Below are positions 1,318-57,592 of a stretch of 64,000 nucleotides of DNA, piece after piece. The position numbers and the translations under genes were made by a program. The stretch is from contig CAVUCJ010000010.1 in the NCBI GenBank assembly GCA_963739745.1, positions 35,983 through 99,982 on the forward strand, written 5' to 3'. Source of the stretch: an uncultured beta proteobacterium. Its GTDB lineage: Bacteria > Pseudomonadota > Gammaproteobacteria > Burkholderiales > Casimicrobiaceae. The notes beneath the pieces were generated by a model that saw nothing but the letters and a program-made list of their open reading frames with translations, did no database searches and had not been told where the DNA came from. Positions within the stretch are counted from its first letter, which is position 1, and each line of letters opens with the position of its first letter.

Positions 1318-1333
1318 TTCGGACTTCGCCGAC
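1318..1333. promoter_or_regulatory. Palindromic operator copy TTCGGA-CTTC-GCCGAC
   Basis: 2 mismatches to GTMRGA-N4-TCYKAC; 105 bp upstream of the CHRD gene; extra half-site TTCCTACA at 1305-1312. Confidence 0.5.
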
Positions 1334-1437
1334 AGCCGCATAACTCGCCGTCCGCCATCCTTCCCATCATCTGGGCTACCCGAACGCAAAGCGTCGCGTA
1401 ATGGGAAGCGGCCTACTATCCTTTGAGGAGAGTCGAC

Positions 1438-1881
1438 ATGCAAGCGAGCTTCCGAAAGCCATCCTGGTCGCGGACTGCAGCGCGGACTGCGGTATGGGCC
1501 CTATTTCTGGGCATTCCGGCATTCGCCGCGTCCGGCGCCCTTGCGACCGAAGTCACGCTATCCGGTACCCAGGAAGTGCCGTCCGTCGACACGAAGGCCA
1601 CGGGTTCGGGACAGATCACGGTGGGCACTGACAAGAGCGTAAACGGCAACATCACCACGACGGGCATCGACGCGACGGCCGCACACATTCATGAAGCGCC
1701 GCCAGGCAAGAACGGCGGGGTCATCGTACCGCTGGTCAAGAGCGGGAGCGGGTGGGCCGTGCCTCCCGGGTCCAAGCTCACCGATGCGCAATACAAGGCG
1801 TACATGGATGGCAATCTCTATGTGAACGTGCATAGCGCCGCCCACAAGGGTGGCGAAATCCGGGGCCAACTCAAGCCCTGA
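1438..1881 (+). CDS. Secreted CHRD-domain protein
   Basis: Signal peptide; LSGTQEVP, AAHIH, LYVNVHS and GGEIRGQL motifs; GAGGAG RBS before ATG 1438. Confidence 0.9.
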   Translation: MQASFRKPSWSRTAARTAVWALFLGIPAFAASGALATEVTLSGTQEVPSVDTKATGSGQITVGTDKSVNGNITTTGIDATAAHIHEAPPGKNGGVIVPLVKSGSGWAVPPGSKLTDAQYKAYMDGNLYVNVHSAAHKGGEIRGQLKP

Positions 1882-1965
1882 CTCCGTCATGTTGGCAGGG
1901 GCCGCCGCGCGAAACGGGGGTGAATTCGTACGTCCCGCGTCCGCGAGCCCGAAAGGAGGATTCGC

Positions 1966-2574
1966 ATGGTGAAGACCGTCGTGGGTTCGTTCGACAGCGC
2001 GTTCGACGCCGTCCGCGCCTCGGAACTCCTGTTGGCCAATGGATTCCTTCGCAATGACATCAACGTCGTGGCCAGCAACGTGGTCCGACCGGTCGCCGGT
2101 TCGTCGGAGTCGACGGGCGCAACGGATGAGGCCAGCAGCGCGACCAGTGGAGCACTGGCCGGCGGCGCGCTCGGCGGTGCCGCCGGGCTGGCTGCCGGCC
2201 TCCTCGGACTGGCCATTCCCGGAATCGGCCCCATCCTGGCGGCGGGACCGATCGCCGCGGCGCTCGCCGGCGCCGGCGCCGGCGCAGTGGCCGGGGGACT
2301 GATCGGTGGACTCACCGAGCAGGGCGTCTCCGAAGTACACGCCGAGTACTACACGGAGGCGGTGCGGCGTGGCGGCGCGCTGGTCACAGTGAAGGTCGAC
2401 GAGTCCCGGACCGATGAAGCGCTTCGCATTCTTCGCAATGCCGGTGCGTTCGACATCGAGGATCGCGCGGTGCGATGGCGCAGCGAAGGGTGGACCGGAT
2501 ACAACCCCAATGCCGAGCCCTTCTCTTTCGAGGAGATTGACGAGAATCGCACGCGTTACCGGGCGGGTCCGTAG
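1966..2574 (+). CDS. YflT-like general stress protein with a Gly/Ala-rich membrane segment
   Basis: GIGPILAAGPIAAAL...GGLIGGL and AEYYTEAVRRGGALVTV pattern; AGGAGG RBS. Confidence 0.75.
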   Translation: MVKTVVGSFDSAFDAVRASELLLANGFLRNDINVVASNVVRPVAGSSESTGATDEASSATSGALAGGALGGAAGLAAGLLGLAIPGIGPILAAGPIAAALAGAGAGAVAGGLIGGLTEQGVSEVHAEYYTEAVRRGGALVTVKVDESRTDEALRILRNAGAFDIEDRAVRWRSEGWTGYNPNAEPFSFEEIDENRTRYRAGP

Positions 2575-2612
2575 TACGTGAGGCGCCGCATCAAGACTGC
2601 AAGGACGCTAGA

Positions 2613-3539
2613 ATGAAGCGAAGGCAAACCGGAAGACCGATCGATAGTCAGACCGAGACGGCCGTCGCCGACGTCGAGCCGCGGCCGCCATTTCCCAGGC
2701 AGCACCAGGACGGACCGGGCATCGAATCAAAGCTCCGGCCGCGCCCGCGTTTCGAGGCGGACCGCTATCGTCCTGCCGGCAAGTTGCACGGCAAAGTCGC
2801 GCTGGTGACCGGCGGAGACTCGGGAATCGGGCGGGCGGTGGCGATGATCTTCGCGCGCGAAGGTGCTGACGTCGCGATTTCGTTCCTTGCGAGCGAGCAA
2901 TCCGACGCCGAGGAAACTCGCTCGATCATAGAAGCGCAGGGACGTCGCTGCCTGCTGCTGGCAGGAGATCTCACCGACGCACACTACTGCCGCCACCTCG
3001 TCGAAGAAACCGTGTCCGAGCTGGGCAAGCTCGACATCCTGGTTTCCAATGCCGCGCATCAGAACCGCAAGGAATCGCTGGCGAACCTGACCGACGCCGA
3101 GCTTGTTCGCACGTTCGAGACGAACATCTACGCGTACGTTCGGCTCGCACGCGCCGCGCTTGACGTCATGGAAGCCGGCGGGGTAATCATCGCGACCAGC
3201 TCGGAAACCGGCATTCTCGGTTCGGCCAAGCTGCCTGACTACTCGGCGACCAAAGGGGCGGTCAACGCCTTCACCAAGGCTCTCGCGCAGAATGTCATCG
3301 AGCGGGGCATCCGCGTCAACGCGATCGCGCCCGGCCCGGTGTGGACGCCGCTCAATCCGTCCGACGCCGGACTGACGCCCGAGCGGGTCGCGCAATTCGG
3401 CGCCCACAGTCCGTTGGGCCGTCCCGCGCAGCCGGAGGAGCTCGCGCCCGCCTACGTATTTCTCGCATCCAACGCCGACTCATCATACATCACCGGTACG
3501 GTGCTGCAGGTGATGGGAGGTGAGACGAGCGGCGGGTGA
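2613..3539 (+). CDS. SDR family oxidoreductase (YdaD/YghA-like general stress dehydrogenase)
   Basis: TGGDSGIG, YSATK and IRVNAIAPGPVWTP motifs; N-terminal FPRQHQDGPG. Confidence 0.9.
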   Translation: MKRRQTGRPIDSQTETAVADVEPRPPFPRQHQDGPGIESKLRPRPRFEADRYRPAGKLHGKVALVTGGDSGIGRAVAMIFAREGADVAISFLASEQSDAEETRSIIEAQGRRCLLLAGDLTDAHYCRHLVEETVSELGKLDILVSNAAHQNRKESLANLTDAELVRTFETNIYAYVRLARAALDVMEAGGVIIATSSETGILGSAKLPDYSATKGAVNAFTKALAQNVIERGIRVNAIAPGPVWTPLNPSDAGLTPERVAQFGAHSPLGRPAQPEELAPAYVFLASNADSSYITGTVLQVMGGETSGG

Positions 3540-3543
3540 TCCC

Positions 3544-3738
3544 ATGCTCGTCTGTCCCGTCGACATGGAGTCTTGTGAACGATCCGTCTGTCGTGCCGGC
3601 CGGTGCCAAACGTCAGCGGCGCCGCCGCTTCTGATCTGCTGGGACTGCGGAACGCTCGAAACTGACGGCGTCGTGCATGGACTATGCGCTGGATGCCTGC
3701 GGGCGTACACGCCGCTCGCGATGGAACGTCCGAGCTGA
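3544..3738 (+). CDS. Small Cys-rich putative zinc-binding protein (64 aa)
   Basis: Fills the SDR-ku gap almost exactly (4 nt and 5 nt gaps); 8 Cys including CWDC and CAGC. Confidence 0.55.
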   Translation: MLVCPVDMESCERSVCRAGRCQTSAAPPLLICWDCGTLETDGVVHGLCAGCLRAYTPLAMERPS

Positions 3739-3743
3739 CAATC

Positions 3744-4703: not shown

Positions 4704-7385
4704 GTGATGTCGCTCACCACCTACCGATCGAAGCGCGATTTTCACCGGACGCCGGAACCGCGGGGCATCGAGCGCGCCGGTCGCGCCACGCGCGGGTCGT
4801 TCGTCGTGCAAATGCATGCGGCGCGTCAACTCCACTACGACTTCCGGCTGGAGCATGACGGCGTGCTTTGGAGCTGGGCCATCCCGAAGGGGCCGAGCCT
4901 CGATCCGGCGGACAAGCGGCTGGCGATCCACGTCGAAGATCACCCGCTCGAGTACGGAGCCTTCGAAGGCATCATACCCAAGGGTGAGTACGGCGGTGGA
5001 GCGGTGCTCATCTGGGACCGCGGAACCTGGTCGCCGCGGGGTGATGCCGCCGAAGGTTACGCGAAGGGTCACCTCGCATTCACGCTCGACGGAGAAAAGC
5101 TCAAGGGAGGCTTCGCGCTGGTGCGCACACGCGGCAGTAGCTACGGGAGCAGGCCGGGTAAGGAGACCTGGCTGCTCATCAAGGAAAGTGACGCCGATGC
5201 GCGGCGCGGCGGCGGCGCGATTGTCGACGACGCTCCCGACAGCGTGGCGAGCGCCCGCAGCATCGACGAGATCTCACGCTCGCGCGGCCGGGCGCCGCGT
5301 ACGCCGTCCGCCACCAAGGCTGCGACGTCAGCGCCTGCCGCCAAGTCGGTGAAGGCCGCGAAGCCAACGAAGGAAGACGCTCGCGCTGTGCAGCGTCCAG
5401 CGACGCGTCGTGAGACCAGCGCCAGGGCGGCTGAAATAGCGGCCGGCGGTGTCAGGACGCCGATGCCGCGGGCATTGCAGCCAATGCTCGCCACGCTGGT
5501 CAAGGACGCGCCGGCCGGCGATGACTGGGTGCATGAAATCAAGTACGACGGCTACCGGATGTTGGCCCGCGTCGAGTTTGGCCGGGCGCGACTTTATTCA
5601 CGCAACGGCAAGGACTGGACGAAGGTATTGGCCGGCGTGGTGCACGACCTCGCGCATCTGCCAGTCCGCAACGCGTGGATCGACGGCGAGGTGGTCGTGC
5701 AGGATTCCGATGGCCGTACCCGCTTCCAGGCGCTGCAAAATGCGCTCGGCGGGGATTCCACGAAGGAAATCTCGTATCTCACGTTCGACCTTCCCTATTG
5801 CGACGATCACGATCTGCGCAGCGTGGCGTTGGTCGAACGAAGGCAACGGCTGCGCGAATTGGTGGGCTCCGGTGTCGGTCGAATACGCATCAGTCCGGAG
5901 GTGCAGGGCAGCGGCCGCGAATTCCTTCGGCAGGCCTGTGCGTTGCACCTGGAAGGGGCCATGGCAAAAAAAGCGTCGTCCCGGTACGCCTCGGGAAAGC
6001 GCTCGCGCGACTGGCTGAAGATCAAGTGCGTGCAGCGCCAGGAGATGGTCATCGGCGGGTACACCGACCCACAGGGTTCGCGTACCGGCTTCGGCGCGCT
6101 GCTGCTCGGCGTGTACGACAAGGGCACACTTCGATATTCGGGCAAGGTTGGCACGGGATTCAACGAAGCGACGCTCCGCGAGCTGGCGCCCGAGTTGGCC
6201 AGGCGCCGGCAGAAGACCACAGCTTTTGCGAACCCGCCGCGCGGCTACGAGGCAAAGGGCGCACACTGGATCACGCCCGAGCTCGTCGCGGAGGTAACGT
6301 TCACCGAATGGAGCGACGATGGTGCTTTGCGCCATCCTTCATTCCAGGGACTTCGTCCCGACAAGGATCCCAGGCAGGTCACGCGCGAGAGACCCATGCC
6401 GACAACTCCCAAGCGCAGACCCACCGTCGCCGCATCTCGCGCGCCCGGTGGATCGACGACCGTGAGCGGCCGCAGGACCGCTGGCGGTGCCGGAGTTGCC
6501 GACACCGTGGCAGGCGTTACGCTGTCGCATCCGGACAAGGTCTACTTTCCCGAAGCTGGCATTACCAAGCGCGAACTCGCTGCCTACTATGCCGCAGTGG
6601 CGCCCTTGCTCGTCCCGCATATCGAGCGACGACCGTTGAGCCTGGTACGTTGCCCGGACGGATGGCAGGGTCAATGCTTCTACCAGAAGCACAGCGATCG
6701 CAGCGTGCATGCGGCGGTGGCCCGAGTCGAGGTTCCGGTAGCGAGTCGCTCGGCAACGTACTTTGCCGCCAACTCCGCTGCTGCGATCGCGGGGCTCGTT
6801 CAGTGGGGTGTCATCGAACTGCATCCCTGGGCGTCGCGCGCGCCGCGCTTCGACCGGCCCGACCGGATCATCTTCGATTTCGATCCCGATCAGGATCTGC
6901 CGTGGCGCGACCTTGCCGTCGGCGTCGAGCTGCTCCACTCGCTGCTCGGCGAACTCGGATTGACCGGCTTCCTCAAGACTACTGGCGGCAAGGGTCTGCA
7001 CGTGGTGCTGCCAGTCCGGGCGACGATGTCGTGGGACGAGGCCAAGTCGTTTGCCCGGGGTGTAGCCGATTTCCTGGTACGTACGTTTCCAGAGCGCTTC
7101 ACGGCCAAGCTAACCAAGGACCGGCGCAAGGGGCGAATCTTCATAGACTACCTGCGCAATGCGCAGGGGGCCACGGCCGTTGCCCCGTACGTGGTACGCG
7201 CTCGGGCGAATGCGCCGGTGGCCACGCCGATCGCATGGAGCGAACTCGACCGGGACGTGCGCTTCGCATTTTTCAACCTGCGCAACGTACCCGCGCGCCT
7301 TGCCCGCCTTCGATCCGATCCCTGGGCGGAATTCTTTGCCACGCGACAGTCGGTTACTACGTCGATCCGCAAACGCTTCAACTGA
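4704..7385 (+). CDS. ligD: DNA ligase D (phosphoesterase-ligase-polymerase order)
   Basis: FVVQMHAARQLHYDFRLE (PE), EIKYDGYR (ligase KxDG), HPDKVYFP and DYLRNAQGAT (polymerase). Confidence 0.95.
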   Translation: MMSLTTYRSKRDFHRTPEPRGIERAGRATRGSFVVQMHAARQLHYDFRLEHDGVLWSWAIPKGPSLDPADKRLAIHVEDHPLEYGAFEGIIPKGEYGGGAVLIWDRGTWSPRGDAAEGYAKGHLAFTLDGEKLKGGFALVRTRGSSYGSRPGKETWLLIKESDADARRGGGAIVDDAPDSVASARSIDEISRSRGRAPRTPSATKAATSAPAAKSVKAAKPTKEDARAVQRPATRRETSARAAEIAAGGVRTPMPRALQPMLATLVKDAPAGDDWVHEIKYDGYRMLARVEFGRARLYSRNGKDWTKVLAGVVHDLAHLPVRNAWIDGEVVVQDSDGRTRFQALQNALGGDSTKEISYLTFDLPYCDDHDLRSVALVERRQRLRELVGSGVGRIRISPEVQGSGREFLRQACALHLEGAMAKKASSRYASGKRSRDWLKIKCVQRQEMVIGGYTDPQGSRTGFGALLLGVYDKGTLRYSGKVGTGFNEATLRELAPELARRRQKTTAFANPPRGYEAKGAHWITPELVAEVTFTEWSDDGALRHPSFQGLRPDKDPRQVTRERPMPTTPKRRPTVAASRAPGGSTTVSGRRTAGGAGVADTVAGVTLSHPDKVYFPEAGITKRELAAYYAAVAPLLVPHIERRPLSLVRCPDGWQGQCFYQKHSDRSVHAAVARVEVPVASRSATYFAANSAAAIAGLVQWGVIELHPWASRAPRFDRPDRIIFDFDPDQDLPWRDLAVGVELLHSLLGELGLTGFLKTTGGKGLHVVLPVRATMSWDEAKSFARGVADFLVRTFPERFTAKLTKDRRKGRIFIDYLRNAQGATAVAPYVVRARANAPVATPIAWSELDRDVRFAFFNLRNVPARLARLRSDPWAEFFATRQSVTTSIRKRFN

Positions 7386-7649: not shown

Positions 7650-7769
7650 CATACCTGGATCTCCTCATGTTTGGGTGTTCGCCTACATGCAATTGCGCTC
7701 GTCGCCGACGGCCATGCGAGCTTGCAGCAGATAGAGTTTTCTGTGTCCACCGACCGTGTGCGCAGATAG

Positions 7770-9005
7770 ATGTCACTACAGCCATCCTCTTTCCCAGATG
7801 CGCCGCACCTGCCGTTGAGGACCCGCATGGATCGCGGCGAGACCGGCGTCGCGAAGGCGCGCTCCGCTGGAAGGCATCTGCGGCGGATGGGGCAGCGAGA
7901 CGAACGTCGGCGCACCGGGCGCAACGAGCCAAATTCGGGTCGGGCAGAGCTGAAGTATGTCTCGGGCGACGCGCCGGGCTTTCGCCGCCGGCGCCAGGGC
8001 AAGGATTTCGTCTACCTGACGGCCGCCGGTCGCCCGGTGACGGATGCAACAGTGCTTGATCGTATCCGTAGACTCGCCATTCCGCCTGCCTACGAAGACG
8101 TCTGGATCTGCAGCAGCCCTAATGGCCACCTGCAGGCGACGGGTCGCGACGCTCGCGGGCGGAAACAATACCGATACCACGCGCAATGGCGCCTGGCGCG
8201 TGATGGCGCGAAGTTCGAACGCATGGCTGCGTTTGGCGCGGCGCTGCCCCGCTTACGGCGCCGGATTCGCCGCGACCTCGCCGCTCCTGGCATGACTCGG
8301 GAGAAAATTATCGCCGCGGTGGTAAGCCTTCTGGACGCGACGCTGGTACGCGTCGGCAACGACGAGTACGCCCGAAGCAACGGCAGTTTCGGCCTAACGA
8401 CGCTGCGCAATCGGCATGTCCGGTTTGCGGCAGGGGGCGCGCTACGCCTCGCGTTTCGCGGCAAAAGGGGAGTCGCACACGAAATCGCCATCGGCAACCG
8501 CCGGCTCGCGGCGATCGTTCGCCATTGTCATCAGCTGCCCGGCCAACGCCTGTTCCAGTTCATTGACGGCTCGGGCTTGACGCGCCCGGTCAACTCGGAC
8601 CAGGTCAATGAGTACCTGCGCGAAGCCATGGGAGCTGATTTCACGGCGAAGGACTTCCGAACGTGGGGGGCGACGGCGCGCTGTGCCGAGTTGCTCGGAC
8701 GCACGCCACTTCCCGAGCGGCGCAGTGAGCGTGCCCTCAAAGCGTGCGAGACCGAGGTCGTGCGAAGGGTGGCCAGCGAATTGCGCAACACGCCTGCCGT
8801 TTGCCGTAAGTCGTACATCAACCCGGTTGCCTTTCACTGCTGGAGGTCCGGTCATTTGCACACAGTGGTGGCTGCCGTCGCGAGCGGCAACGGGCGCAGA
8901 AGCGAACGCATCACGCTGGCAATGTTGCGATCGGTCAGGTTGCGGCTGCAGGCCGGGAAACGCTCACCAGTCTGGGAGACGACGTCCGGGAGCAGCCGCG
9001 GCTGA
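7770..9005 (+). CDS. Bacterial (poxvirus-like) DNA topoisomerase IB
   Basis: GRKQYRYH, KDFRTWG and CRKSYINP (catalytic Tyr) motifs; start codon uncertain. Confidence 0.92.
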   Translation: MSLQPSSFPDAPHLPLRTRMDRGETGVAKARSAGRHLRRMGQRDERRRTGRNEPNSGRAELKYVSGDAPGFRRRRQGKDFVYLTAAGRPVTDATVLDRIRRLAIPPAYEDVWICSSPNGHLQATGRDARGRKQYRYHAQWRLARDGAKFERMAAFGAALPRLRRRIRRDLAAPGMTREKIIAAVVSLLDATLVRVGNDEYARSNGSFGLTTLRNRHVRFAAGGALRLAFRGKRGVAHEIAIGNRRLAAIVRHCHQLPGQRLFQFIDGSGLTRPVNSDQVNEYLREAMGADFTAKDFRTWGATARCAELLGRTPLPERRSERALKACETEVVRRVASELRNTPAVCRKSYINPVAFHCWRSGHLHTVVAAVASGNGRRSERITLAMLRSVRLRLQAGKRSPVWETTSGSSRG

Positions 9006-9021: not shown

Positions 9022-9264
9022 ATGCCCATCTGGGAGATCGTGCTTCGGGGAAGCGTCATCTACCTCTTCCTCTTCGCTCTGTTTCGTTTTGTTGTACGGC
9101 GCGACGTCGGCAGGATTGGCATCGCGGATTTGCTGGCGTGGGTACTCGCTTCCAATGCCGCCCAGAATGCCATGGCCGGGGATTACCGCACGGTGCGGCG
9201 ACGTCGCGGCGAACGCCGGCGATTTTGCTCGATGCGTGTCGGAACTTGGCCGACGAGAAATTAG
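9022..9264 (+). pseudogene. 3'-truncated DUF421 (YetF-like) membrane protein fragment
   Basis: MPIWEIVLRGSVIYLFLFALFRFVVRRDVGRIGIADLL...SNAAQNAMAGDY, then homology is lost. Confidence 0.65.
9238..9254. promoter_or_regulatory. Palindromic operator variant with N5 spacer, GTCGGA-ACTTG-GCCGAC
   Basis: 111 bp upstream of DUF6496; TACATT hexamer starts 61 bp from the distal edge. Confidence 0.5.
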
Positions 9265-9364: not shown

Positions 9365-9538
9365 ATGGCTGCATACGGAAAGGCTGCGCAATCCAAGGTC
9401 AAGAAGGTGATGGAGGAAAAGAAACGTGGAACGCTTCGCAGTGGAAGCGGCAAGAAGGTCACCAGCCGCAAGCAGGCAATTGCCATTGGTCTTTCGGAAG
9501 CGCGCAAGGCAGGTGCCAAGGTCCCCAATCAAAAGTGA
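9365..9538 (+). CDS. DUF6496-type small basic protein (57 aa)
   Basis: KVKKVMEEKKRGTLRSGSGKKVTSRKQAIAIGLSEAR; GGAGG RBS. Confidence 0.85.
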   Translation: MAAYGKAAQSKVKKVMEEKKRGTLRSGSGKKVTSRKQAIAIGLSEARKAGAKVPNQK

Positions 9539-11975: not shown

Positions 11976-12057
11976 AACAGTGGCGGGCCGCATCGCCGCC
12001 CACCTGCGCGGGGCAGGTGCGGATCGAGTGAGCCGGGCCGTGGGCACGCCGCCGCTG

Positions 12058-13299: not shown

Positions 13300-13416
13300 G
13301 GCGAGGGCAGCGTGTTGCCGTGACGGTGATCGTACAACCACCTGCGCGTGTTCGCCGCTTATGCGTGTCGTTACCTTCCACCAGCCTCGGCGGGCAAGAT
13401 CGGTTTCAGCACCGAT

Positions 13417-13432
13417 GTCCGAAAAATCCTAC
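13417..13432. promoter_or_regulatory. Palindromic operator GTCCGA-AAAA-TCCTAC
   Basis: 1 mismatch to consensus; CAGAAT at 13478 (61 bp); upstream of the tandem PRC gene. Confidence 0.65.
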
Positions 13433-13615
13433 GCCGATCTCGGTCGAAGGGCGACATCCATGGGCGGCCCGCATCGCCAGAATTTGCGTATCGCGGACGC
13501 CCACGGAGTACGGGACACATTCCCGCGGGAAGTTCGGCGGAAAGCTCTGTCGAGTGACCTGATGGCGCCTGAAAAGGGAAAGTCCGACGTCCGATGATCA
13601 ACATAGGAGAATGAA

Positions 13616-37834: not shown

Positions 37835-37872
37835 GACGATCGCGGCGCGCGCAACGTGTTTGCCCGGGGCAT

Positions 37873-42609: not shown

Positions 42610-42625
42610 GTAGGACAAGTCCGAC
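42610..42625. promoter_or_regulatory. Perfect-consensus operator GTAGGA-CAAG-TCCGAC
   Basis: 88 bp upstream of the sigma54 activator; TACGAT at 42671 (61 bp); extra half-site at 42575. Confidence 0.7.
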
Positions 42626-42712
42626 AGCCGTTTCCACAATGCGCCGATGCGGGTTTCGTATTGTCCCCACTACGATGGGCGCCATACGAAGAATCGTTTC
42701 GAGGGTGAGGCC

Positions 42713-45252: not shown

Positions 45253-45268
45253 AGGCATGCTCCGTGCA
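45253..45268 (+). promoter_or_regulatory. Candidate sigma54 promoter AGGCATGCTCCGTGCA
   Basis: GG-N10-GC, about 60 bp upstream of ATG 45327. Confidence 0.4.
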
Positions 45269-45595: not shown

Positions 45596-46114
45596 ATGAC
45601 ATTGACCGATGAAGTCAGACTGCTCCTGGAGGCCCCGACGATGAATGCAAGGGATGTGCGAACACTGCTGCGGCAGGATCATGAGGAGGCGCTGCAGCTC
45701 GCACGCGACATGTACGAATCGGAGAGCGGCGAAGAACGGCGTGCGCTGCTGCGTCAATTGCGGCCGGCGCTAATCGCGCATTCACGGGCGGAAGAGAAGG
45801 AAGTTTACGACGCGCTGATACGCGGCAAGGTCTCCGTTGAAGCGCAGGAAATCGTCTATGAAGGGTACGTGGAGCATGGCGTGCTCGACGACCTGCTCGA
45901 GAAGCTGGCGCGCAGTCGGAAGTCTGAGTCGGAAGAGTGGAAGGCGCATGCCCGGGTGTTGCTCAGATTCCTGGAGCGCCACATCGAGGAAGAGCAGGTA
46001 CGGATGTTCGACGCGCTGGTCGAATTCTTCGACGACGAACAGCGCGAAACTCTGGGACGCCGGTTCGGCGCGGTCAAGGCACGCTGGGCTGCGATGCGGG
46101 CCAAGGCGGCCTGA
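45596..46114 (+). CDS. Hemerythrin/HHE cation-binding domain protein
   Basis: LRQDHEE, AHSRAEEKEVY, EHGVLD and RHIEEEQ motifs. Confidence 0.85.
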   Translation: MTLTDEVRLLLEAPTMNARDVRTLLRQDHEEALQLARDMYESESGEERRALLRQLRPALIAHSRAEEKEVYDALIRGKVSVEAQEIVYEGYVEHGVLDDLLEKLARSRKSESEEWKAHARVLLRFLERHIEEEQVRMFDALVEFFDDEQRETLGRRFGAVKARWAAMRAKAA

Positions 46115-46194: not shown

Positions 46195-46557
46195 CTAGCG
46201 CAGCAGACGCCCGGCGAAATAGCCAAGCACCATCGCTCCCGCTACCGAAGCAAGCGGGCGGGCGCGAACAAATCCGGCGCATGACTCCTTCACTTCGGTC
46301 GATCGGGCCGCAACCTGGCGGGAATTTTGGGTCGCCCAATCGACGGCCGGTGCTGCGCTGTCGGCCACCTTGTCGATCGTGCGATGTGCGGTTGACGACG
46401 CGTGTTCGATCGCCGGCGTCGCCTTGGTGGCGAGCCGATCGACGACCTGGTGCGCGCGGTCGGCAATGCCTGACAACGGGTTGCGATTGCCGGAGGATGA
46501 CGGCAAGGCCGGTGCCGGTGGATTGACGCTGGAGGTGCTGGTCGCGGATGTATTCAT
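46195..46557 (-). CDS. ElaB/YqjD(DUF883)-like tail-anchored protein
   Basis: Helical repeats ending in FVRARPLASVAGAMVLGYFAGRLLR; GGAGA RBS. Confidence 0.7.
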   Translation of the reverse strand: MNTSATSTSSVNPPAPALPSSSGNRNPLSGIADRAHQVVDRLATKATPAIEHASSTAHRTIDKVADSAAPAVDWATQNSRQVAARSTEVKESCAGFVRARPLASVAGAMVLGYFAGRLLR

Positions 46558-46690
46558 GGCGGAGTCTCCTGGAGTCGGATTCGCTTGCTCGTGCCGAATT
46601 GCCGAGCGCAATTGCATTGTCCTGCGTTTCGCCGGGTACAGAGAAGCCGCGACTCGCCCATTCGGCGCGTCGGTGCGGCGGCAATACTGT

Positions 46691-46706
46691 GTCGGAATCG
46701 GCTGAC
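46691..46706. promoter_or_regulatory. Operator copy (T)GTCGGA-ATCG-GCTGAC(A)
   Basis: 1 mismatch; 134 bp upstream of 46557 (minus strand). Confidence 0.55.
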
Positions 46707-46749
46707 AACACGCCGCGACTTCCCTGAACGCAGGCATTCCGCACGCTCG

Positions 46750-47739: not shown

Positions 47740-48036
47740 GACGATATCCTGCCTGCGGCTCGCGTGGGGGGTGGAGGGATTGTACGTTGGTGAACTGGTT
47801 CCAACAACTCGCGCGCGGCGAACGCGGCTTACGCCGCCTGCCGCGGCCGGTGATCGCCGATCCCACCCCCGACCACAGCGGATGGCGTTCCTACATCGCA
47901 GCATGAAGTAGGACGAACATCGACAAGCGTATTGTCAATGCGCTGATTGGACGGGGGCGACGATTGGGGCAAGGTCGTGTGCGTGTGATCCCTGAGGCGT
48001 TGTGGTCACGGCGGCCCCCAAAAAGAGGTAGCACCG

Positions 48037-48204
48037 ATGCTTCGATTCGCGGTTATATTCTTCATCATTGCCATCGTCGCGGCGCTGTTCGGATTCGGAG
48101 GCGTTGCGGCGGGCGCCACCGAGATTGCGAAGATACTGTTCTTCGTGTTCCTGGTCCTGTTCATCGTTTCGCTCGTTGCCGGCCTGCTGAAGCGCGGGCC
48201 CTGA
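48037..48204 (+). CDS. DUF1328 small membrane protein (55 aa)
   Basis: [36 protein letters not shown]; not in the ORF track. Confidence 0.9.
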
Positions 48205-48254: not shown

Positions 48255-49658
48255 CTAGGACGTGACCGGTGGAGTCGTGGGTGATGTCGCCGTCGTCGGC
48301 CGCGCGCGGATGGGAACGTTGACCTCGATGATGGTGCCACGCTCGACGCCCCGGGAGATAGCGAACTCGCCCTCCAACGCACGCACGCGCTGGCGCATTC
48401 CGGCGATGCCGTGTGAAAGTTTGTTGTCCTGCGCAACATCCGGAATCCCGATGCCGTCGTCCTCGATAAGCAGCGTCACCGTGTCCGCGGTCAGGCCGAG
48501 ATCGACGCTGACGTGACTGGCGCGCGCGTACTTGACGATGTTGGTCAGCGCCTCCTGCAAGATCCGATAGAGGGCAATCGACACCTGCGGCGCGATCACG
48601 CTGTCGTCCTTCGGTGTCGCGATCACGCAATCAAGCCCGGCGCGGTCGCAGATTTCGTGAACCTGCCAGTCGAGCGCCGCGGACAGTCCCAGGTTGTCGA
48701 GGAGCGTGGGGCGTAGCTCCTCGATGATGCGGCGCTTGATCTGGACTCCGTCATCCAGCGCCTTGACCGCCCGTTCGAGCTTGGCGGAGAACTCAGGATC
48801 GCGCTTGCGCATGCGCTCCTCGACCCATGCAACGTCCATCTTGGCGCTGACCAGGATGCCGCCCAGCTCGTCGTGAAGGTCCCGGGCGAGCTTCGACTTC
48901 TCGTCCTCGCGCACGACCTGCAGATGATTAGACAGCTCGGTCAATGCCGCAGTGCGCTCCTCGACGACCACTTCGAGCCGTCGCTTGTCCTCCGCTATGC
49001 TGCGCCGGCGCGCCTCGCGCTCTCGCGCGTCGTGCCGCGCGAGCAGCCACACGATGAGCAGCAATGCCACGGTGAACGACGTCATGATCTGCATGCTGAG
49101 GCGTGCGAATGCGATATCCGCCGCCCACTGGTTGGCCGCCGTCTCCAGCCGCCGTTGACTCGTCATGACCATGTCTGCGACCTGCGTGCGGATGTCATCC
49201 ATTGCCCGCTGGCCGATGCCGGTGTCAACCAGCGCCTGTGCGGCCTGCATGCCGTCGCGCTTGAACAGCGCGATCGCTGCCTCGAGCTCGGAGAGCTTCT
49301 TGCCGACGAGCTGACTGACACGCGCAAATCCGGTGCGCTGAGTGGGTGTTCCGCTGGCGACGAGCAATTCGCGCAACCGGCCCAGCGATTCGTCGACCTT
49401 GGGCAGCGCGCTCAGGTATGGTGCCAGGTACTCAGACTTACCCGTAAGTAGGTAGCCCCGCTCGCCGGTTTCGGCATCGACGATCAGTGCGAGCACTTCA
49501 CGCAGCGTCGCCTGCAGGTTCAACGTCACCGCCATCTGCCGATTGGCAAGCTCGAGGCGGCGGTAGCCGAGTTCGGCGTAAACAGCGATCGCGATTGACG
49601 CGATGATCCCCAGGAGCAGCGGGGCGACCACCTTCAACGGGAGTGGCGATTTCTTCAC
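48255..49658 (-). CDS. CHASE3-domain sensor histidine kinase (HisKA_3)
   Basis: TM-CHASE3 (DAETGERGYLLTG)-TM, LARDLHDELG, QEALTNIVKY and DDGIG motifs. Confidence 0.92.
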   Translation of the reverse strand: MKKSPLPLKVVAPLLLGIIASIAIAVYAELGYRRLELANRQMAVTLNLQATLREVLALIVDAETGERGYLLTGKSEYLAPYLSALPKVDESLGRLRELLVASGTPTQRTGFARVSQLVGKKLSELEAAIALFKRDGMQAAQALVDTGIGQRAMDDIRTQVADMVMTSQRRLETAANQWAADIAFARLSMQIMTSFTVALLLIVWLLARHDAREREARRRSIAEDKRRLEVVVEERTAALTELSNHLQVVREDEKSKLARDLHDELGGILVSAKMDVAWVEERMRKRDPEFSAKLERAVKALDDGVQIKRRIIEELRPTLLDNLGLSAALDWQVHEICDRAGLDCVIATPKDDSVIAPQVSIALYRILQEALTNIVKYARASHVSVDLGLTADTVTLLIEDDGIGIPDVAQDNKLSHGIAGMRQRVRALEGEFAISRGVERGTIIEVNVPIRARPTTATSPTTPPVTS

Positions 49659-50051: not shown

Positions 50052-50390
50052 CTAACGCCTGGCTGGTGCGTCGAGCGAAGTCGACGAGTGGTTGTTGGCC
50101 TGCCCGGGCTTGGGCATCGACTTGGACTCCTCGCTCGGTGTCATGGCCTCATGGGGCTGGGTCGCGGGGCTGTCTTTGGCGGTTTCGGCGGCAGTGCTGT
50201 CCTTGGGAGACTCGGCGGCGCCGCTTCCCGCCGTCGAGGGCATCTGCGACGGTGTGCTCGGTGCGGCGACCACCGGTGGTGTGGCGGGAGGAGACGTCAC
50301 CTGGGCCGCTTGCCTTGACTTGTCTTCGCCGCAGGCGCCGAGCATGAGGCAGGTGGTGAGGGATGCAGCGATCATTAGAATGTACTTCAT
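50052..50390 (-). CDS. Small low-complexity lipoprotein
   Basis: MKYILMIAASLTTCLMLGAC lipobox; CAGGAG RBS. Confidence 0.7.
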   Translation of the reverse strand: MKYILMIAASLTTCLMLGACGEDKSRQAAQVTSPPATPPVVAAPSTPSQMPSTAGSGAAESPKDSTAAETAKDSPATQPHEAMTPSEESKSMPKPGQANNHSSTSLDAPARR

Positions 50391-50506
50391 CGGGTTCTCC
50401 TGGTTGTCGTCGCCGCCGACAGCCCGCCTGGAGCTATCGCGAACGGTTGGCTGCAATCCTGGAATTTCTGGGCAGCCGAGCCCATCCGTGCGTGTCGGAA
50501 GCGGCT

Positions 50507-50522
50507 GTAGGACCATTCCGAC
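50507..50522. promoter_or_regulatory. Perfect-consensus operator GTAGGA-CCAT-TCCGAC
   Basis: Divergent intergenic region; minus-strand CAGGAT at 50461 (61 bp); extra half-site GTCGGA at 50494. Confidence 0.7.
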
Positions 50523-50638
50523 CACCGTGCGCGAAACTGCAAGTGGAAGGTTGCACAATTGCGACCCAGGTTTCGGCACCGATACCGATGTCGGGGCCAA
50601 GACGCTGAATCCGAAGCAAATTCACATCCGTTTCGCGA

Positions 50639-50654
50639 TGGCATGGCGCGTGCA
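50639..50654 (+). promoter_or_regulatory. Candidate sigma54 promoter TGGCATGGCGCGTGCA
   Basis: GG-N10-GC, about 60 bp upstream of DUF1328 and the bacterioferritin-like gene. Confidence 0.55.
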
Positions 50655-50711: not shown

Positions 50712-50873
50712 ATGCTTTATTACGCCGCGCTCTTTCTCGTCATCGCGCTCGTCGCTGCGCTGTTCGGATTCGGCGGTATCGCCGCGGGCGCCGCCGGCAT
50801 CGCGAAGATCCTGTTTTTCATATTCCTCGCCGTCGCCGTGGTCACATTCCTGGTGTCATTGGCGCGAAGATAG
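50712..50873 (+). CDS. DUF1328 small membrane protein (53 aa)
   Basis: [36 protein letters not shown]; CAGGAG RBS. Confidence 0.9.
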
Positions 50874-50932: not shown

Positions 50933-51508
50933 ATGATTACTACGAAATTGGTCCGCGAGGATGAGTCGCCCGCGTCGACGCCAATTCTGTCTGACGTCCA
51001 GACCCTGCGAAAACGCGCCCGCCAGCATATCGAGGCGGGCGCCGTGACTCCGGGATATGGCGCGAACGCAAGGCAAGTCTGCCAAGTATTGAACGATGCG
51101 CTCGCAACCGAAATAGTTTGTGTGCTGCGGTACAAGCGCCATTACTTCATGGCGCAGGGAATCACCTCCGAATCAGTGAAGGCAGAATTCCTGGCCCATG
51201 CTGGTGAGGAGCAGGCGCACGCAGATGAGATCGCCGGACGGATCGTCCAGCTGGGCGGCGAGCCCGATTTCGACCCGAGCAGTCTCGCCGCCCGCAGCCA
51301 CGCCGAGTACGTGACGGGTTCGACGCTGCGCGACATGATCCGCGAAGACCTGATCGCCGAACGTATCGCGATCGAGAGCTATCGCGAAATCATCGCCTGG
51401 CTCGCCGGCAGGGATTCGACCACGCGCAAGATGATGGAGGGCATCCTCGCAGTCGAGGAGGAGCACGCCGAGGAGATGGCGTCGTTGCTGGCGCGATTGA
51501 AGGAATAG
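50933..51508 (+). CDS. Bacterioferritin/ferritin-like protein
   Basis: LATEIVCVLRY, EEQAHAD..AGRIVQLGG, EDLIAER and EEEHA motifs. Confidence 0.88.
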   Translation: MITTKLVREDESPASTPILSDVQTLRKRARQHIEAGAVTPGYGANARQVCQVLNDALATEIVCVLRYKRHYFMAQGITSESVKAEFLAHAGEEQAHADEIAGRIVQLGGEPDFDPSSLAARSHAEYVTGSTLRDMIREDLIAERIAIESYREIIAWLAGRDSTTRKMMEGILAVEEEHAEEMASLLARLKE

Positions 51509-53282: not shown

Positions 53283-53816
53283 CTACCAGGTTGTCACCAC
53301 GGTCGCGCCGGTTTGGCGCAATTGCCGAACCGCCAAATCGAACTGCTGGCTCGTTTCAGGGTGGACTACCACCGTCCAGCGACCAGCATCTGCCGCCTCG
53401 CGCACGGGACGAATGACAGCCTCGTGATCCGGACGCATGGTGACCAGTCCTCCCACCATCAGGCCCAGCATCGCACCGATCATCATCATGGCAACCAGCG
53501 CCACGGCAGGCGCGTCCACGACCGGCGCGACTCCCGACACATACAGCACTGCAAACAGCATCGATCCGGCGACCACGCCGACCACGCCGCAGGTCGCGTG
53601 CGCGCGCAATACCGTACGCCAGATGCCCGTGGTTTCGGGCTCGACCTTGCGGCCCCACGCGCTGTCGTACGGTTCCACGAGCTGCACCTGGCGTCGTTGG
53701 ATGTCCGGGAGCCGAACAACCTGTTGCGCCGCCGCGCTGGCTGTCGCGAAGTCGTCATAGGCGGCAGCCACCTTGCTCAATGAATGTTCGCCGAACAGGA
53801 GGCTCGTGGCGTTCAT
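53283..53816 (-). CDS. Hypothetical two-TM protein with a general-stress-like fold
   Basis: MNATSLLFGEHSLSKVAAAY..., two TM helices, GRWTVVVHP; GGGAGA RBS. Confidence 0.65.
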   Translation of the reverse strand: MNATSLLFGEHSLSKVAAAYDDFATASAAAQQVVRLPDIQRRQVQLVEPYDSAWGRKVEPETTGIWRTVLRAHATCGVVGVVAGSMLFAVLYVSGVAPVVDAPAVALVAMMMIGAMLGLMVGGLVTMRPDHEAVIRPVREAADAGRWTVVVHPETSQQFDLAVRQLRQTGATVVTTW

Positions 53817-53901: not shown

Positions 53902-54159
53902 TCACGCGGTCTTCCACCAACGCAGGTCCGGCCCGGAGGGCTCGGGCACTCGCGTCCGAAAACCCTGCGCGAAGCGGATTGCCACCGCGACCACCAACAG
54001 CGTCAACGAGCCATACAGCAACAAGTCGTGGGCAGGAACCGGACTGTCAAATCCCGCGAACGTGACCGCCTTGACCGGAGTGGCGGCGGTCGACAGCGCG
54101 CCCAACAGCGTGCATGCGAGGCTGGTCCGTAGGGCATCGAGTTTGCGTGGGGCGTTCAT
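53902..54159 (-). CDS. Small hypothetical membrane protein
   Basis: Signal-like N-terminus plus one TM helix; GGAGGG RBS. Confidence 0.55.
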   Translation of the reverse strand: MNAPRKLDALRTSLACTLLGALSTAATPVKAVTFAGFDSPVPAHDLLLYGSLTLLVVAVAIRFAQGFRTRVPEPSGPDLRWWKTA

Positions 54160-54243
54160 CGCTTGTCCCTCCGTGGGGTTGATGATGAGTGCACTCTAGA
54201 CGGTGAGCGGAGATTGCCCGATCGGCGTCCTTTCGATTCTGGT

Positions 54244-54259
54244 GTCGGACGACTCCGAC
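54244..54259. promoter_or_regulatory. Perfect palindromic operator (T)GTCGGA-CGAC-TCCGAC(A)
   Basis: 7-4-7 inverted repeat; minus-strand TAGAGT at 54198 (61 bp). Confidence 0.72.
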
Positions 54260-54514
54260 AAGCCACCCGCGGCGCGGCCAGGCCGTCCGCGTTGCGCAAT
54301 GCGGCGCGATGTTGGAATTGCATCACGGAATTCGCGTGGCGCCGCGCCGGAGAGCCAACGACGTCAGCGCCCGCCGACAGGAGCTTCGGACTGCAACCGA
54401 TGGCGGTGATTTCCGAATTGACCGATCCTGCAATTGCAAGTCACGCATGCTGCGTCGCGCGTGGAAAGCGCGGGCGTTCGTGCAACCGTGAAATCGGACA
54501 TTTTGGAGAATTCG

Positions 54515-55422: not shown

Positions 55423-55438
55423 GTCAGACTCGTCTGAC
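55423..55438. promoter_or_regulatory. Perfect palindromic operator (C)GTCAGA-CTCG-TCTGAC(G)
   Basis: 7-4-7 inverted repeat 160 bp upstream of the BON gene; second weaker copy at 55504-55519 with CATTTT 61 bp away. Confidence 0.65.
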
Positions 55439-55987: not shown

Positions 55988-55993
55988 GCCATC

Positions 55994-56224
55994 ATGAACA
56001 CGAGCACTATTCGACGTTGCGCGATTGTGGCCGCCATGGGGGCTTGGGGAATTGGGCTCGCCGGCTGCAGCGGAATGACCACGCGTGATCGCGATACTGT
56101 CATTGGCGCGGGTGTGGGAGCTGTGGGGGGCGCGGCACTCACCAACGGCAATCCGGTTGGGACCGTGGGAGGCGCCGTAGTTGGTGGCGTCATCGGCAAT
56201 CAGGTAGGCAAGGACAAGCATTGA
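55994..56224 (+). CDS. OsmB-like glycine-zipper 2TM lipoprotein
   Basis: LAGC lipobox; DTVIGAGVGAVGGA...GGAVVGGVIGNQV. Confidence 0.88.
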   Translation: MNTSTIRRCAIVAAMGAWGIGLAGCSGMTTRDRDTVIGAGVGAVGGAALTNGNPVGTVGGAVVGGVIGNQVGKDKH

Positions 56225-56749
56225 GCTGCAATCCGCGGGGAATTCCAATCGACGGCCATCGACGGATTGTCGCTGGTCTGAAGTCGTGTAAGGGGTTCCC
56301 CAGCGGAGTTTGCTCGACCGGTCCGCCAATACTCAACCGGGCTACCGAAGCAACGGGACGTGAGCGCATCTAGGCCGCGTCCAACAGAGAATTGAAGTCG
56401 TCCAGGAAGTGGGCGCGTTTCGACGCGCCAGCGATTCGTCCTGCGCGGCCCGACACAGGGTTAGGCGGGCGCGGTTGCGCCCAGTTTTGTTCCAGTGTCC
56501 TGCACGTTGATCCTACCGGCACAATCACCTGGCTACTCGAGCCTCTCCACCCTCGCCAGCATTTGCGGCGATTCCGAGGCGCTCGAGAAACTCGACGACC
56601 TGCTGTTCGCCGGCGGGGGGCAGCGGGGAGGAGCAGCGCGTACCCCGTCCGCGTTGGTCCGACACGCGAATCGTCCTGCGTCCGATCGTCCCGGCGATCA
56701 CGTTCGGGCGTAATGATCTTCATCGAAACACACATCAAGGAGCGGGAAA

Positions 56750-56995
56750 ATGCCCGCAACTGAAACGAAATTACCGGGTTTACGTATGCGGAAATGCTGC
56801 CCGCGTCCGGGTAAGTCCGCGGCGTCGCCGGCATTCGGGGCGCCGCTGCGTTCGTCGCTGCCCACCCTCGAGTGGTTGCCGCTGGCATCGGCCCCGTTCG
56901 CGGTGGCGCGTGGCGTGCTGCAATCGGCGGCGCGATGCGTCCGATCTGGCCTCGGACGACTCCGGCCCGCGCTGGTGGAAGTACCTTACGCCTGA
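56750..56995 (+). CDS. Orphan small ORF (81 aa)
   Basis: AAGGAG RBS; stop abuts the RBS of the next ORF. Confidence 0.4.
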   Translation: MPATETKLPGLRMRKCCPRPGKSAASPAFGAPLRSSLPTLEWLPLASAPFAVARGVLQSAARCVRSGLGRLRPALVEVPYA

Positions 56996-57007
56996 AGGAG
57001 CCTGATC

Positions 57008-57301
57008 ATGTCCACCCGCAACATCGTGCTGTTCCTTCGGTTCTTCGCGGCTTCGTTCGTGACAGCGCTCCTGGTCGTGGCACTCGCCCAGGTTAATGGC
57101 ATCCGGGTGCTCGGGCTGGCGGCGATGGTTTTCGCGGTCTGCGGCTTCGCGTTGCAGTTCGACGAGCTTCGCAGGGAAGACCCGCACGCCTTGGCCGTGC
57201 TCCGTTACCGGGTGCTGCAGCCGCTCCGCCGGACACGCGATGCGCTCGTCCGACTCGCCGCACGGCTGGCGGCCCGACTGCACATCCACGCAGCGCCGTG
57301 A
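57008..57301 (+). CDS. Orphan two-TM small protein (97 aa)
   Basis: AAGGAG RBS; two hydrophobic helices. Confidence 0.6.
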   Translation: MSTRNIVLFLRFFAASFVTALLVVALAQVNGIRVLGLAAMVFAVCGFALQFDELRREDPHALAVLRYRVLQPLRRTRDALVRLAARLAARLHIHAAP

Positions 57302-57487
57302 CCGGGGCCACCGGCGATCTGCTCGAGCTGCGCGGCGAGCGCGACCATGCGGCGATTCCGAAGCCGATGGAAACCGGGAGGCGGCCGTCAATGTCAATGG
57401 CTGTTTCGACTTCCGCAATCAGGCGACGGAATCCTTGCGATCCAAGATCCGCAAAATGGTATGAGTTCGCCCCAAACATGGTTGGGC

Positions 57488-57503
57488 GTAGGCTGAGTCC
57501 CAC
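57488..57503. promoter_or_regulatory. Operator copy GTAGGC-TGAG-TCCCAC
   Basis: 2 mismatches; TAACGT at 57550 (62 bp); 90 bp upstream of the crystallin gene. Confidence 0.6.
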
Positions 57504-57592
57504 GGGAACTTGCGCAGACCGCCGATGGTGACGTGAACGCGCGATGCGCTAACGTGATGCCCATCCGTTACACACGGCAGAATGGAGGCGAT

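Follow-up and report, generated by a model that had tools for sequence, protein, structure and literature searches.

A recurring palindrome is part of a conserved and directional promoter module in an uncultured Casimicrobiaceae bacterium

The locus and its promoter module

The stretch of DNA analysed here, referred to as the window, comprises 64,000 nucleotides (nt) of contig CAVUCJ010000010.1 (assembly GCA_963739745.1) from an uncultured beta proteobacterium of the family Casimicrobiaceae. It carries a recurring palindrome, GTMRGA-N4-TCYKAC, which an earlier note made from the letters alone had proposed as the operator of a stress regulon. Pfam families in the window are DUF3309, DUF1328 (three copies), Dps/ferritin-like, BON, beta/gamma-crystallin, PG-binding, CHRD, DUF6496, PRC-barrel and hemerythrin, and they agree with that note's labelling of the genes downstream of the sites as small stress proteins. 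The genes of a putative regulatory system lie in the same window:

42713-43738, plus strand: sensor-less sigma-54 enhancer-binding protein; an N-terminus of about 30 amino acids, an AAA+ domain with GAFTGA and Walker A, and HTH_8; no sensory or receiver domain.
43777-44409, plus strand: response regulator of the REC + GerE (NarL/LuxR) type, the proposed dyad binder; Response_reg 1e-29, GerE 5e-16.
44581-45033, plus strand: stand-alone REC-only receiver protein, which adjoins the regulator in all lineages.
48255-49658, minus strand: CHASE3-HisKA_3-HATPase sensor kinase (domains HisKA_3 and HATPase_c), the probable partner of the regulator.

Homologous loci, numbered with the prefix L, were collected with the regulator protein as query. 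About 44 of the 80 loci belong to Casimicrobiaceae or related uncultured Burkholderiales, with 71-94% regulator identity, and the remainder to Ralstonia, Caballeronia and Paraburkholderia, with about 66%. Most of the 80 loci keep the kinase gene in synteny with the regulator gene, and this applies to all three groups. No public assembly holds a record of the regulator's exact protein sequence, and a search of PLSDB gave no meaningful match that would point to a plasmid origin of the window.

Since the earlier consensus was post hoc, the palindrome was retested with models (matrices and nhmmer profiles) trained without any window sequence, on DNA from other genomes only. They are a half-site matrix of the dyad with 105 arms as input, a second matrix of the whole architecture at fixed spacing, and two nhmmer profiles, one from orthologous promoters and one from 52 sequences. 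Genes were mapped with a codon-usage model, which is approximate and bears on the intergenic and coding tallies only; by these calls intergenic DNA makes up 24% of the window.

The palindrome is a genuine recurrent element and makes up the upstream half of a promoter module that is both conserved and directional. It forms the core of an 18- or 19-base-pair (bp) inverted repeat, dyad 1 (TGTMGGAC-N2/3-GTCCKACA), both arms of which fit one half-site matrix. A second inverted repeat, dyad 2 (aTCGG-N7-CCGAT), begins 5 nt downstream and has the TCGG/CCGA core in common with dyad 1; after a further 22 nt follows a TAnnAT hexamer. The distal arm can move by 1 nt. The module lies upstream of the sigma-54-activator/response-regulator operon in 32 related Casimicrobiaceae loci, conserved block by block, and at the position orthologous to 42610 the arms are kept while the spacer varies; conservation in orthologous promoters, which the earlier note had named as a check, is thus borne out. 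An ungapped comparison of the 32 promoters gives the consensus TGTAGGAC, 5-6 nt, (C)(G/T/C)ACA, 5 nt, (a/t)TC(C/G)G, 7 nt, GCCGAT, 22 nt, (C)TAnnAT, about 35 nt, ATG, with maxima of information content at ACA, TCnG, GCCGAT and TAnnAT and no -35 consensus. The dyad does stand, as had been claimed, at a fixed distance from a -10-like hexamer. If TAnnAT is the -10, dyad 1 is centred at -65.5 and dyad 2 at -43, 22.5-23 bp from centre to centre. The earlier picture of a lone class I activator site has to be given up, because the second conserved dyad lies between the palindrome and the -10. Searches of the literature for the literal TGTAGGAC returned only primer noise, and searches for earlier work on the system (Burkholderia, CHASE3, response regulator, entericidin) returned nothing relevant.

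Seven sites in the window have the three parts in order (dyad 1, dyad 2, hexamer), with scores from nhmmer and from the architecture matrix:

42609-42676, plus strand: promoter of the activator/regulator operon; dyad 1 CGTAGGACAAGTCCGACA at 42609-42626, dyad 2 TTCCA-N7-CCGAT at 42632-42648, TACGAT at 42671-42676, ATG at 42713; 31 bits nhmmer, 48.7 architecture.
54193-54260, minus strand: TGTCGGAGTCGTCCGACA, ATCGA-N7-CCGAT, TAGAGT; 15.8 bits nhmmer, 39.5 architecture; predicted to drive the gene of an 85-amino-acid membrane protein (53902-54159, minus strand) and probably 53283-53816 (minus strand).
50456-50523, minus strand: GGTCGGAATGGTCCTACA, TTCCG-N7-CGGAT, CAGGAT; 36.2 architecture; predicted target a lipoprotein gene (50052-50390, minus strand).
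47907-47975, plus strand (N3 type, architecture match at 47908): AGTAGGACGAACATCGACA, ATTGT-N7-CTGAT, CAAGGT; 10.7 bits nhmmer, 27.4 architecture; predicted target DUF1328 (48037-48204).
37872-37939, plus strand, weaker: TGTAGGTGGGCGCCTACG, TGCAG-N7-CCGAT, GATAGT; 20.8 architecture (shuffle maximum 19.7); predicted target DUF3309 (37980-38135).
57487-57555, plus strand: CGTAGGCTGAGTCCCACG, TTGCG-N7-CCGAT, 23 nt, TAACGT; 17.8 bits nhmmer (E=1.8e-4), 19.8 architecture; predicted target a beta/gamma-crystallin and glycine-zipper gene (57593-58390).
13416-13483, plus strand, moderate: TGTCCGAAAAATCCTACG, CTCGG-N7-GCGAC, CAGAAT; 14.0 architecture; predicted target a PRC-barrel gene (13616-14494).

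All four exact copies of the palindrome reported earlier (42610, 50507, 54244 and 55423) are present, against 0.05 expected, a count reached in 0 of 100 shuffles; the near copies read as they had been given, and with at most one mismatch there are eight matches against 1.1 expected. An unbiased k-mer comparison found GTAGGA in 14 intergenic and 3 coding copies and CGTAGGA in 6 and 0. The outside-trained matrices uphold the excess over shuffled controls. Nine window matches to the half-site matrix reach at least 14 bits, against 0.40 per shuffle, and nine of the ten above 12 bits are intergenic. Six matches to the architecture matrix are at or over the best of 30 shuffles (19.7), and 11 score at least 14, against 0.07 per shuffle; five of these are moderate, with scores of 14-18 (7670+, 54362+, 7631-, 56647+ and 13416+). 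The nhmmer profile of orthologous promoters returned 42610 (E=9e-12), 57488 (1.5e-4), 54244- (0.0099), 47908 (0.074) and 50507- (0.27), and the 52-sequence profile gave five matches of at least 10 bits against 0.05 per shuffle. Every strong match faces a start codon 30-130 nt downstream.

The earlier list of sites survives in part. Full architecture is strong at 42610, 54244-, 50507-, 47908, 37873 and 57488 and moderate at 13417. The sites at 32566, 46691, 9238 and 1318 hold as dyads, with an incomplete downstream architecture, and those at 55423, 55504, 45146, 40985 and 11960 are at background level in every independent matrix; about a third of the listed sites are thus at chance level. The xAnnnT hexamers noted at 42671, 54198-, 50461-, 37934, 13478, 47970, 57550, 9299 and 11914- are all in place. 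The sequence GTCAGACTCGTCTGAC at 55423-55438 fits the degenerate consensus exactly and fails both independent matrices; its position is about 20 nt upstream of what may be a ribosome-binding site on the minus strand. Near-identical stretches, GGCGGGCCGCATCGCC at 11985-12005 and GGCGGCCCGCATCGCC at 13460-13478, are found downstream of their dyads.

Partial and moderate matches, together with one additional half-site, are as follows:

42574-42581, plus strand: additional TGTAGGAC half-site, 35 nt from dyad 1 on its upstream side; members of the close clade conserve this offset (L001, L004-L008, L013, L015, L016 and L018).
32565-32583, plus strand: dyad only, CGTAGGACGACGGCCGACA; 18.0 bits half-site; no downstream architecture; 312 nt upstream of a sigma-54-like site at 32253 (minus strand).
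46690-46707, no strand assigned: dyad only, TGTCGGAATCGGCTGACA; 15.3 bits half-site; about 135 nt upstream of a 120-amino-acid open reading frame (46195-46557, minus strand).
9237-9255, plus strand: dyad TGTCGGAACTTGGCCGACG, with TACATT at 9299; 14.8 bits half-site, -1.4 architecture; dyad 2 not recognisable; upstream of DUF6496 (9365-9538).
1317-1334, plus strand: dyad only, TTTCGGACTTCGCCGACA; 14.5 bits half-site; upstream of a CHRD gene (1438-1881).
41006-41024, plus strand: dyad only, CGTCGGAGATCTTCCCACA, a new site beside 40985; 14.8 bits half-site, 11.4 architecture; upstream of a peptidoglycan-binding/glycine-zipper gene (41119/41266-41634).
7670-7740, plus strand: moderate architecture match with the right arm only, containing CAATTGC; 18.3 architecture, 9.8 bits nhmmer; upstream of a topoisomerase IB gene.
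56647-56717, plus strand: moderate architecture match, GTCCGACA, AATCG-N7-TCCGAT; 15.6 architecture; 361 nt upstream of the gene of a 97-amino-acid membrane protein (57008-57301).

The topoisomerase gene (7827-9005, plus strand) encodes a bacterial type IB enzyme (Topoisom_I and Top1B_N_bact). The three DUF1328 paralogues of the window have three upstream types: none detected at 33418-33591 (minus strand), the three-part module at 48037-48204 (plus strand) and a sigma-54 promoter at 50712-50873 (plus strand). DUF1328 is a target of the module also in L006, L014 and Caballeronia.

The module in other lineages and its -10 hexamer

In Ralstonia and Paraburkholderia, the sequence immediately preceding the regulator gene showed no dyad at first inspection. 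A matrix scan of whole loci placed it 1.4-3 kb from the regulator gene: the dyad lies beside the regulator/kinase module, at a conserved position, in every Paraburkholderia locus and most Caballeronia loci (35 matches in 666 kb, about eight times the shuffle rate). These loci have no sigma-54 activator gene there, which favours the response regulator as the dyad binder. In Caballeronia, TGTCGGTGATGTCCTACA is followed after 44 nt by TAACAT and then by DUF1328, with the spacing and the target family of window site 47908. Paraburkholderia xenovorans LB400 (L079, minus strand) has TGTAGGAGTGCGCCGACG, a middle degenerate dyad ending in CCTACA, AATCGC-N7-CCGACA, and TACCAT 22 nt past CCGAC, in front of an entericidin-type lipoprotein gene. 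This promoter corresponds to L079 7018-6929, at about NC_007951.1:3307616-3307705, with its dyad at about 3307616-3307633. The proximal box of Paraburkholderia is thus CCGACA, a canonical half-site, where Casimicrobiaceae has CCGAT; this makes CCGAT most plausibly a variant half-site and the two dyads predicted sites for one protein.

Metagenomes were scanned with a pattern of dyad 1 and dyad 2 only, without the -10, which gave more than 120 matches, 115 of them with enough downstream sequence. In these 115, YAnnnT follows CCGAT at exactly 22 nt in 76 and at 21 nt in 22 (85% together); other offsets have 0-7 matches almost throughout, and an unrelated peak at offset 10 has 16. The genes behind the matches form a coherent set: the sigma-54 activator, the regulator itself, DUF1328, BMFP/UbiK, CsbD, hemerythrin, BrkB/YihY, an unnamed family of about 90 amino acids and four FlhD. 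The unnamed family (NVHGEGNYEA[ST]RQYNEATKKF...AEQAALLRAK) has no Pfam match and is among the most frequent module targets; it stands behind the module in L081, L088, L110, L117, L124, L158, L168, L172, L180 and others, and also in L003 at 7850. The module precedes flhD, the flagellar master regulator, in the lower-GC metagenome contigs L102, L107, L125 and L149, which suggests that a related regulator may control motility in another lineage.

Four RNA-seq runs hold the P. xenovorans LB400 locus. In run X7 the stretch 6620-6914, which runs through the gene as far as its terminator, forms a separate 295-nt contig of depth 325; its upstream flank has depth 32. The contig edge indicates an abundant transcript with its 5' end about 15 nt past TACCAT (6934-6929) and 42 nt past CCGACA. 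This evidence for TAnnAT as the -10 is supportive, not decisive.

The sigma-54 tier and the protein at the dyads

Three sites of sigma-54 type were identified in the window:

50639-50654, plus strand: sigma-54 promoter, TGGCATGGCGCGTGCA, 19.4 bits; 57 nt before DUF1328 (50712-50873), then Dps/ferritin-like (50933-51508); positional orthologues in 10 loci.
45253-45268, plus strand: probable sigma-54 promoter, AGGCATGCTCCGTGCA; upstream of a small open reading frame and a hemerythrin gene (45596-46114).
32238-32253, minus strand: near-consensus sigma-54 site, TGGCACGACAGATGCT, 12.5 bits; 11 nt before a long gene cluster (17221-32226, minus strand).

The cluster at 17221-32226 opens with Gluconate_2-dh3 and GMC-oxidoreductase genes. 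Sigma-54 sites (TGGCACG-N4-nTGCA/G) recur at fixed offsets from the regulator start in L004-L051: G1 at about +1.2-1.3 kb, with a small secreted protein, G2 at about +2.75-2.97 kb, with CsbD, and G3 at about +6-6.9 kb, with DUF1328 (/Dps). The 45253 site, which at 12.0 bits is not significant alone, is supported mainly by the conserved G1 position, where TGGCACG-N4-nTGCA is found in 20 related loci. The conserved sigma-54 promoters co-occur with the activator gene. Four Casimicrobiaceae loci (L002, L017, L019 and L023) lack that gene beside the regulator; each keeps one or two three-part promoters, and no strong sigma-54 sites were found in them. In L002, L017, L019, L098 and L140 the module lies directly upstream of the regulator gene. 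The N-terminus of the activator (window 42713-42810 and metagenome orthologues) is conserved as IVxLPFxAAxRAASxPALGRFGxLYG and might be a docking or regulatory peptide in place of a sensory domain.

The three-part module was rejected as a sigma-54 promoter in its own right, because no GG/GC pair of that type (consensus GG-N10-GC, TGGCAC-N5-TTGC) is conserved within it. In the activator promoters of L020-L051 (e.g. L021 8254-8334), CGATACG-N4-TTGCA lies between dyad 2 and the -10 at the exact -24/-12 spacing of sigma-54, without the GG. The alphaproteobacterial EcfG promoter (GGAAC-N16/17-CGTT) was likewise rejected, with one match against 2.2 expected and not at stress genes; the host is a betaproteobacterium.

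The regulator's best relatives in the PDB are VraR/LiaR, DevR (2e-30) and NarL, and its best curated family is UvrY/SirA/GacA (NF007018, 178.4 bits). Its recognition helix, LSVKTVSTYRTRVLEKM, is invariant across lineages, out to Ralstonia and Paraburkholderia; the residues compared have only family-level similarity to LiaR/VraR, from which specificity is not inferable. We consider it likely that the palindrome serves as dyad 1 in a composite promoter which is bound by this GacA/NarL-type regulator and depends on it for activation, and that the targets are stress genes, the regulator's own operon and the sigma-54 activator. The motif with its conservation, spacing, orientation and co-occurrences is observed here, as is a transcript end close to the hexamer in a cultured relative. 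We infer the identity of the binding protein, the sign of regulation (activation as against repression) and the inducing signal from sequence. The CHASE3/HisKA_3 kinase would phosphorylate the regulator, two dimers of which would occupy both dyads cooperatively, roughly two helical turns apart. The proximal dimer, over the -35 region, would recruit RNA polymerase in the manner of DevR/DosR at a promoter without a -35. Targets in the window would be the own operon (positive autoregulation), DUF1328, DUF3309, the beta/gamma-crystallin, the lipoprotein, the 85-amino-acid membrane protein and the PRC-barrel protein. Induction of the operon would also raise the sensor-less sigma-54 activator, its first gene, which could drive a second tier at 50639 (DUF1328-Dps) and 45253 (hemerythrin), giving a two-tier cascade and possibly a feed-forward loop.

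A wider proposal is possible and is put forward tentatively. One two-component system may wire the general-stress response over two sigma factors, acting directly through tandem dyads at sigma-70-type promoters and, through the co-transcribed activator, at sigma-54 promoters that have the dyad, complete or as one half, 100-135 nt upstream. The regulator would license the activator at these shared sites in a coherent feed-forward arrangement. The sigma-70 core would then be older than the sigma-54 tier, reaching Paraburkholderia and Caballeronia and possibly extending to flhDC control elsewhere.

Several observations weigh against the main reading, that of a composite promoter bound by the regulator. 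The separation of 22.5-23 bp is two helical turns plus 1.5-2 bp, and at several window sites dyad 2 has a weak left arm (TTCCA, ATTGT, TGCAG). Upstream of 87 uncurated sigma-54 sites no words are more enriched than the dyad arms, and the sigma-54 activator could also be a dyad binder. The regulator scores under the GacA equivalog cut-off (178 vs 280 bits). No conserved dyad was found in the 20 kb examined around the Ralstonia orthologues, and the regulator might be near the sites only through a shared stress island. No RNA runs holding the window were found, as it occurs only in soil-metagenome DNA runs; the P. xenovorans RNA evidence comes from assembled contigs of a relative, from one of the four runs, and with upstream read-through.

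Part of this points to the activator itself. The dyad might be the upstream activating sequence of the sigma-54 activator, bound through HTH_8, and serve in sigma-70-type promoters for its autoregulation or repression, the response regulator binding dyad 2 only or nothing; we judge this unlikely. TCCTAC (17 times) and GTAGGA (13 times) are the most enriched hexamers 40-170 nt upstream of the 87 sites, the arms peak at about -100 to -110 and -130 to -140, which are usual activator distances, and TGT-N12-ACA resembles the TGT-N10-ACA upstream activating sequence of NifA. The dyad at 50506-50523 lies 116-133 nt upstream of the strong plus-strand promoter at 50639. This pairing of a sigma-54 site with dyad 1 of a divergent three-part promoter is seen in all 11 G3 regions (10 related loci and the window). 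Because the same dyad serves as dyad 1 there, an activating role at the G3 sites is inseparable from the divergent promoter, which alone explains the conservation of the dyad in 11 of 11. The module also persists without an adjacent activator gene, in L002, L017, L019, L023 and all Paraburkholderia and Caballeronia loci, and a fixed 44 nt to the -10 is characteristic of activators of sigma-70 promoters and uncharacteristic of enhancer-binding proteins. The activator has an alternative candidate site in an AATTGC/CAATTG box that occurs specifically upstream of sigma-54 sites; AATTGC is 7-fold enriched and present at 27 of the 87 sites. The G2 upstream regions keep only a GTCCTACA half-site, and true TGTAAG is found only in those of G1.

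It is also improbable that the dyads are bound by a regulator encoded elsewhere, for example another LuxR/GerE protein, with the neighbouring two-component system only a member of the regulon. Stress islands often gather co-regulated regulators, and the Ralstonia orthologues have the same recognition helix with no conserved dyad nearby. Set against this, the dyad stays with the regulator/kinase module in three Burkholderiales groups whose neighbouring genes differ, a GacA-like protein family matches a GacA-like box, and the regulator gene of Casimicrobiaceae is always behind such a promoter. In Ralstonia (L045-L059) a conserved inverted repeat, CCGATACAATTGCTGTCGTATCG, surrounds a TACAAT -10 about 85 nt upstream of the regulator start; it joins the CCGATAC and CAATTGC words of the Casimicrobiaceae elements.

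Far less credible is a promoter for an alternative sigma factor, in which GACA would be the -35, GCCGAT(A) a FliA-like -10 and TAnnAT a leader feature, with no activator dyads. GCCGATA does resemble the sigma-28 -10 GCCGATAA, 17 nt separate GACA from CCGAT, and four metagenome matches precede flhD. There is, however, no TAAA-type -35 (the sigma-28 form being TAAA-N15-GCCGATAA), both blocks are halves of inverted repeats, and the hexamer 22 nt downstream has -10 character (T/C-A-n-n-n-T, 85% of matches). The P. xenovorans transcript edge, 42 nt past CCGACA and 15 nt past TACCAT, and targets that are stress genes, not flagellar ones, also argue against it.

That a GC-rich palindrome recurs by chance, or that it is a repeat element without a regulatory role, could be argued from the post hoc consensus and the five listed sites at chance level, but is already refuted by a 20- to 100-fold excess over shuffles with independent matrices, nine of ten dyads being intergenic, orthologous positions kept in more than 30 genomes with variable spacers, and a consistent orientation toward genes.

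Relation to known regulons and biological meaning

The closest parallel to the composite promoter is DevR/DosR of Mycobacterium tuberculosis. DevR boxes at tgs1 lie at -42.5 and -63.5; DevR requires two or more boxes arranged in tandem and in helical phase, and the divergent tgs1-Rv3131 promoters have boxes in common (PMC3177182). DosR contacts sigma region 4 and alpha-CTD (PMC13486717). The system described here likewise pairs a NarL-family regulator with a HisKA_3 kinase and has at least two tandem palindromes about two turns apart, the proximal one over the -35 (here -43 and -65.5, with the start of transcription placed from TAnnAT). As in the DevR system, divergent promoters share a box (here 50507), the own operon is among the predicted targets, and the regulon comprises small stress or dormancy proteins; crystallin-named proteins occur in both, from unrelated families. 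The half-site TGTMGGAC and the inner spacing differ from the Dev box, GGGACT-WW-AGTCCC within a 20-bp box. The sensor of the kinase is CHASE3 here and GAF/haem in the DevR system, the phylum differs, and dyad binding is here a prediction. To our knowledge, DevR has no sigma-54 tier.

The NarL 7-2-7 site, bound by a REC-GerE dimer, consists of two inverted heptamers (TACYYMT) with 2 bp between them, and dyad 1 similarly has two inverted 7/8-mers 2 bp apart; NarL sites occur at many positions and orientations, in contrast to the fixed two-dyad module. The GacA box, TGTAAG-N6-CTTACA, is an 18-bp palindrome located at -75 for rsmY (PMC4950607). Dyad 1, read as TGTAGG-N6-CCTACA (also TGTCGG/CCGACA) at about -65, shares 10 of the 12 specified bases, one base per arm being different, and the earlier assignment of the site to the cis-regulatory elements of NarL/LuxR-type regulators stands as a prediction. 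The differences from GacS/GacA are that the kinase is CHASE3-HisKA_3 without REC or Hpt, unlike the unorthodox GacS, that the targets are open reading frames with ribosome-binding sites and not Rsm/Csr small RNAs, that a second, promoter-proximal dyad is present, and that the regulator falls under the equivalog cut-off. An Rfam search of the large intergenic regions of the window found no known RNA families. Since the Dev box sequence, the GacA equivalog score, the GacS-type kinase and the small RNA targets are all lacking, the system, as predicted from its sequence, is a NarL/LuxR-family two-component regulon of new specificity and belongs to neither the Dev-box nor the GacA-box family.

The activator resembles those of the PspF and HrpR/S type in having only AAA+ (GAFTGA) and HTH domains, with sigma-54 target promoters clustered beside its gene; activators of that type are regulated through their own synthesis or through partner proteins. 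It differs in that its gene opens an operon shared with a NarL-type regulator and follows the presumed promoter of that regulator; no PspF or HrpR/S equivalog cut-off is reached and no PspA-like partner was seen.

The Escherichia coli RpoS regulon includes the BON/OsmY, entericidin, Dps, CsbD and DUF1328/YtjA families. The likeness of the present system to the enterobacterial general-stress regulon is in this gene content only, and some of the -10s are preceded by C; co-regulation here would be by upstream dyads and not by a sigma-specific -10.

In beta- and gammaproteobacteria, RpoS is usually credited with the control of general-stress genes such as DUF1328/YtjA, entericidin, CsbD, BON, Dps and DUF3309. 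The cis-module described here instead predicts a two-component regulon for such genes in Burkholderiales, conserved from an uncultured soil family to Paraburkholderia and Caballeronia. In the window, a NarL-type regulator is also coupled, unusually, to a sigma-54 activator that lacks a sensor. For the uncharacterised regulator/kinase pair, a binding site and a set of targets are now predicted, and the entericidin promoter of P. xenovorans LB400 offers a tractable system in which to test them. The matrices should serve the annotation of regulons in metagenome-assembled genomes of unculturable soil bacteria.

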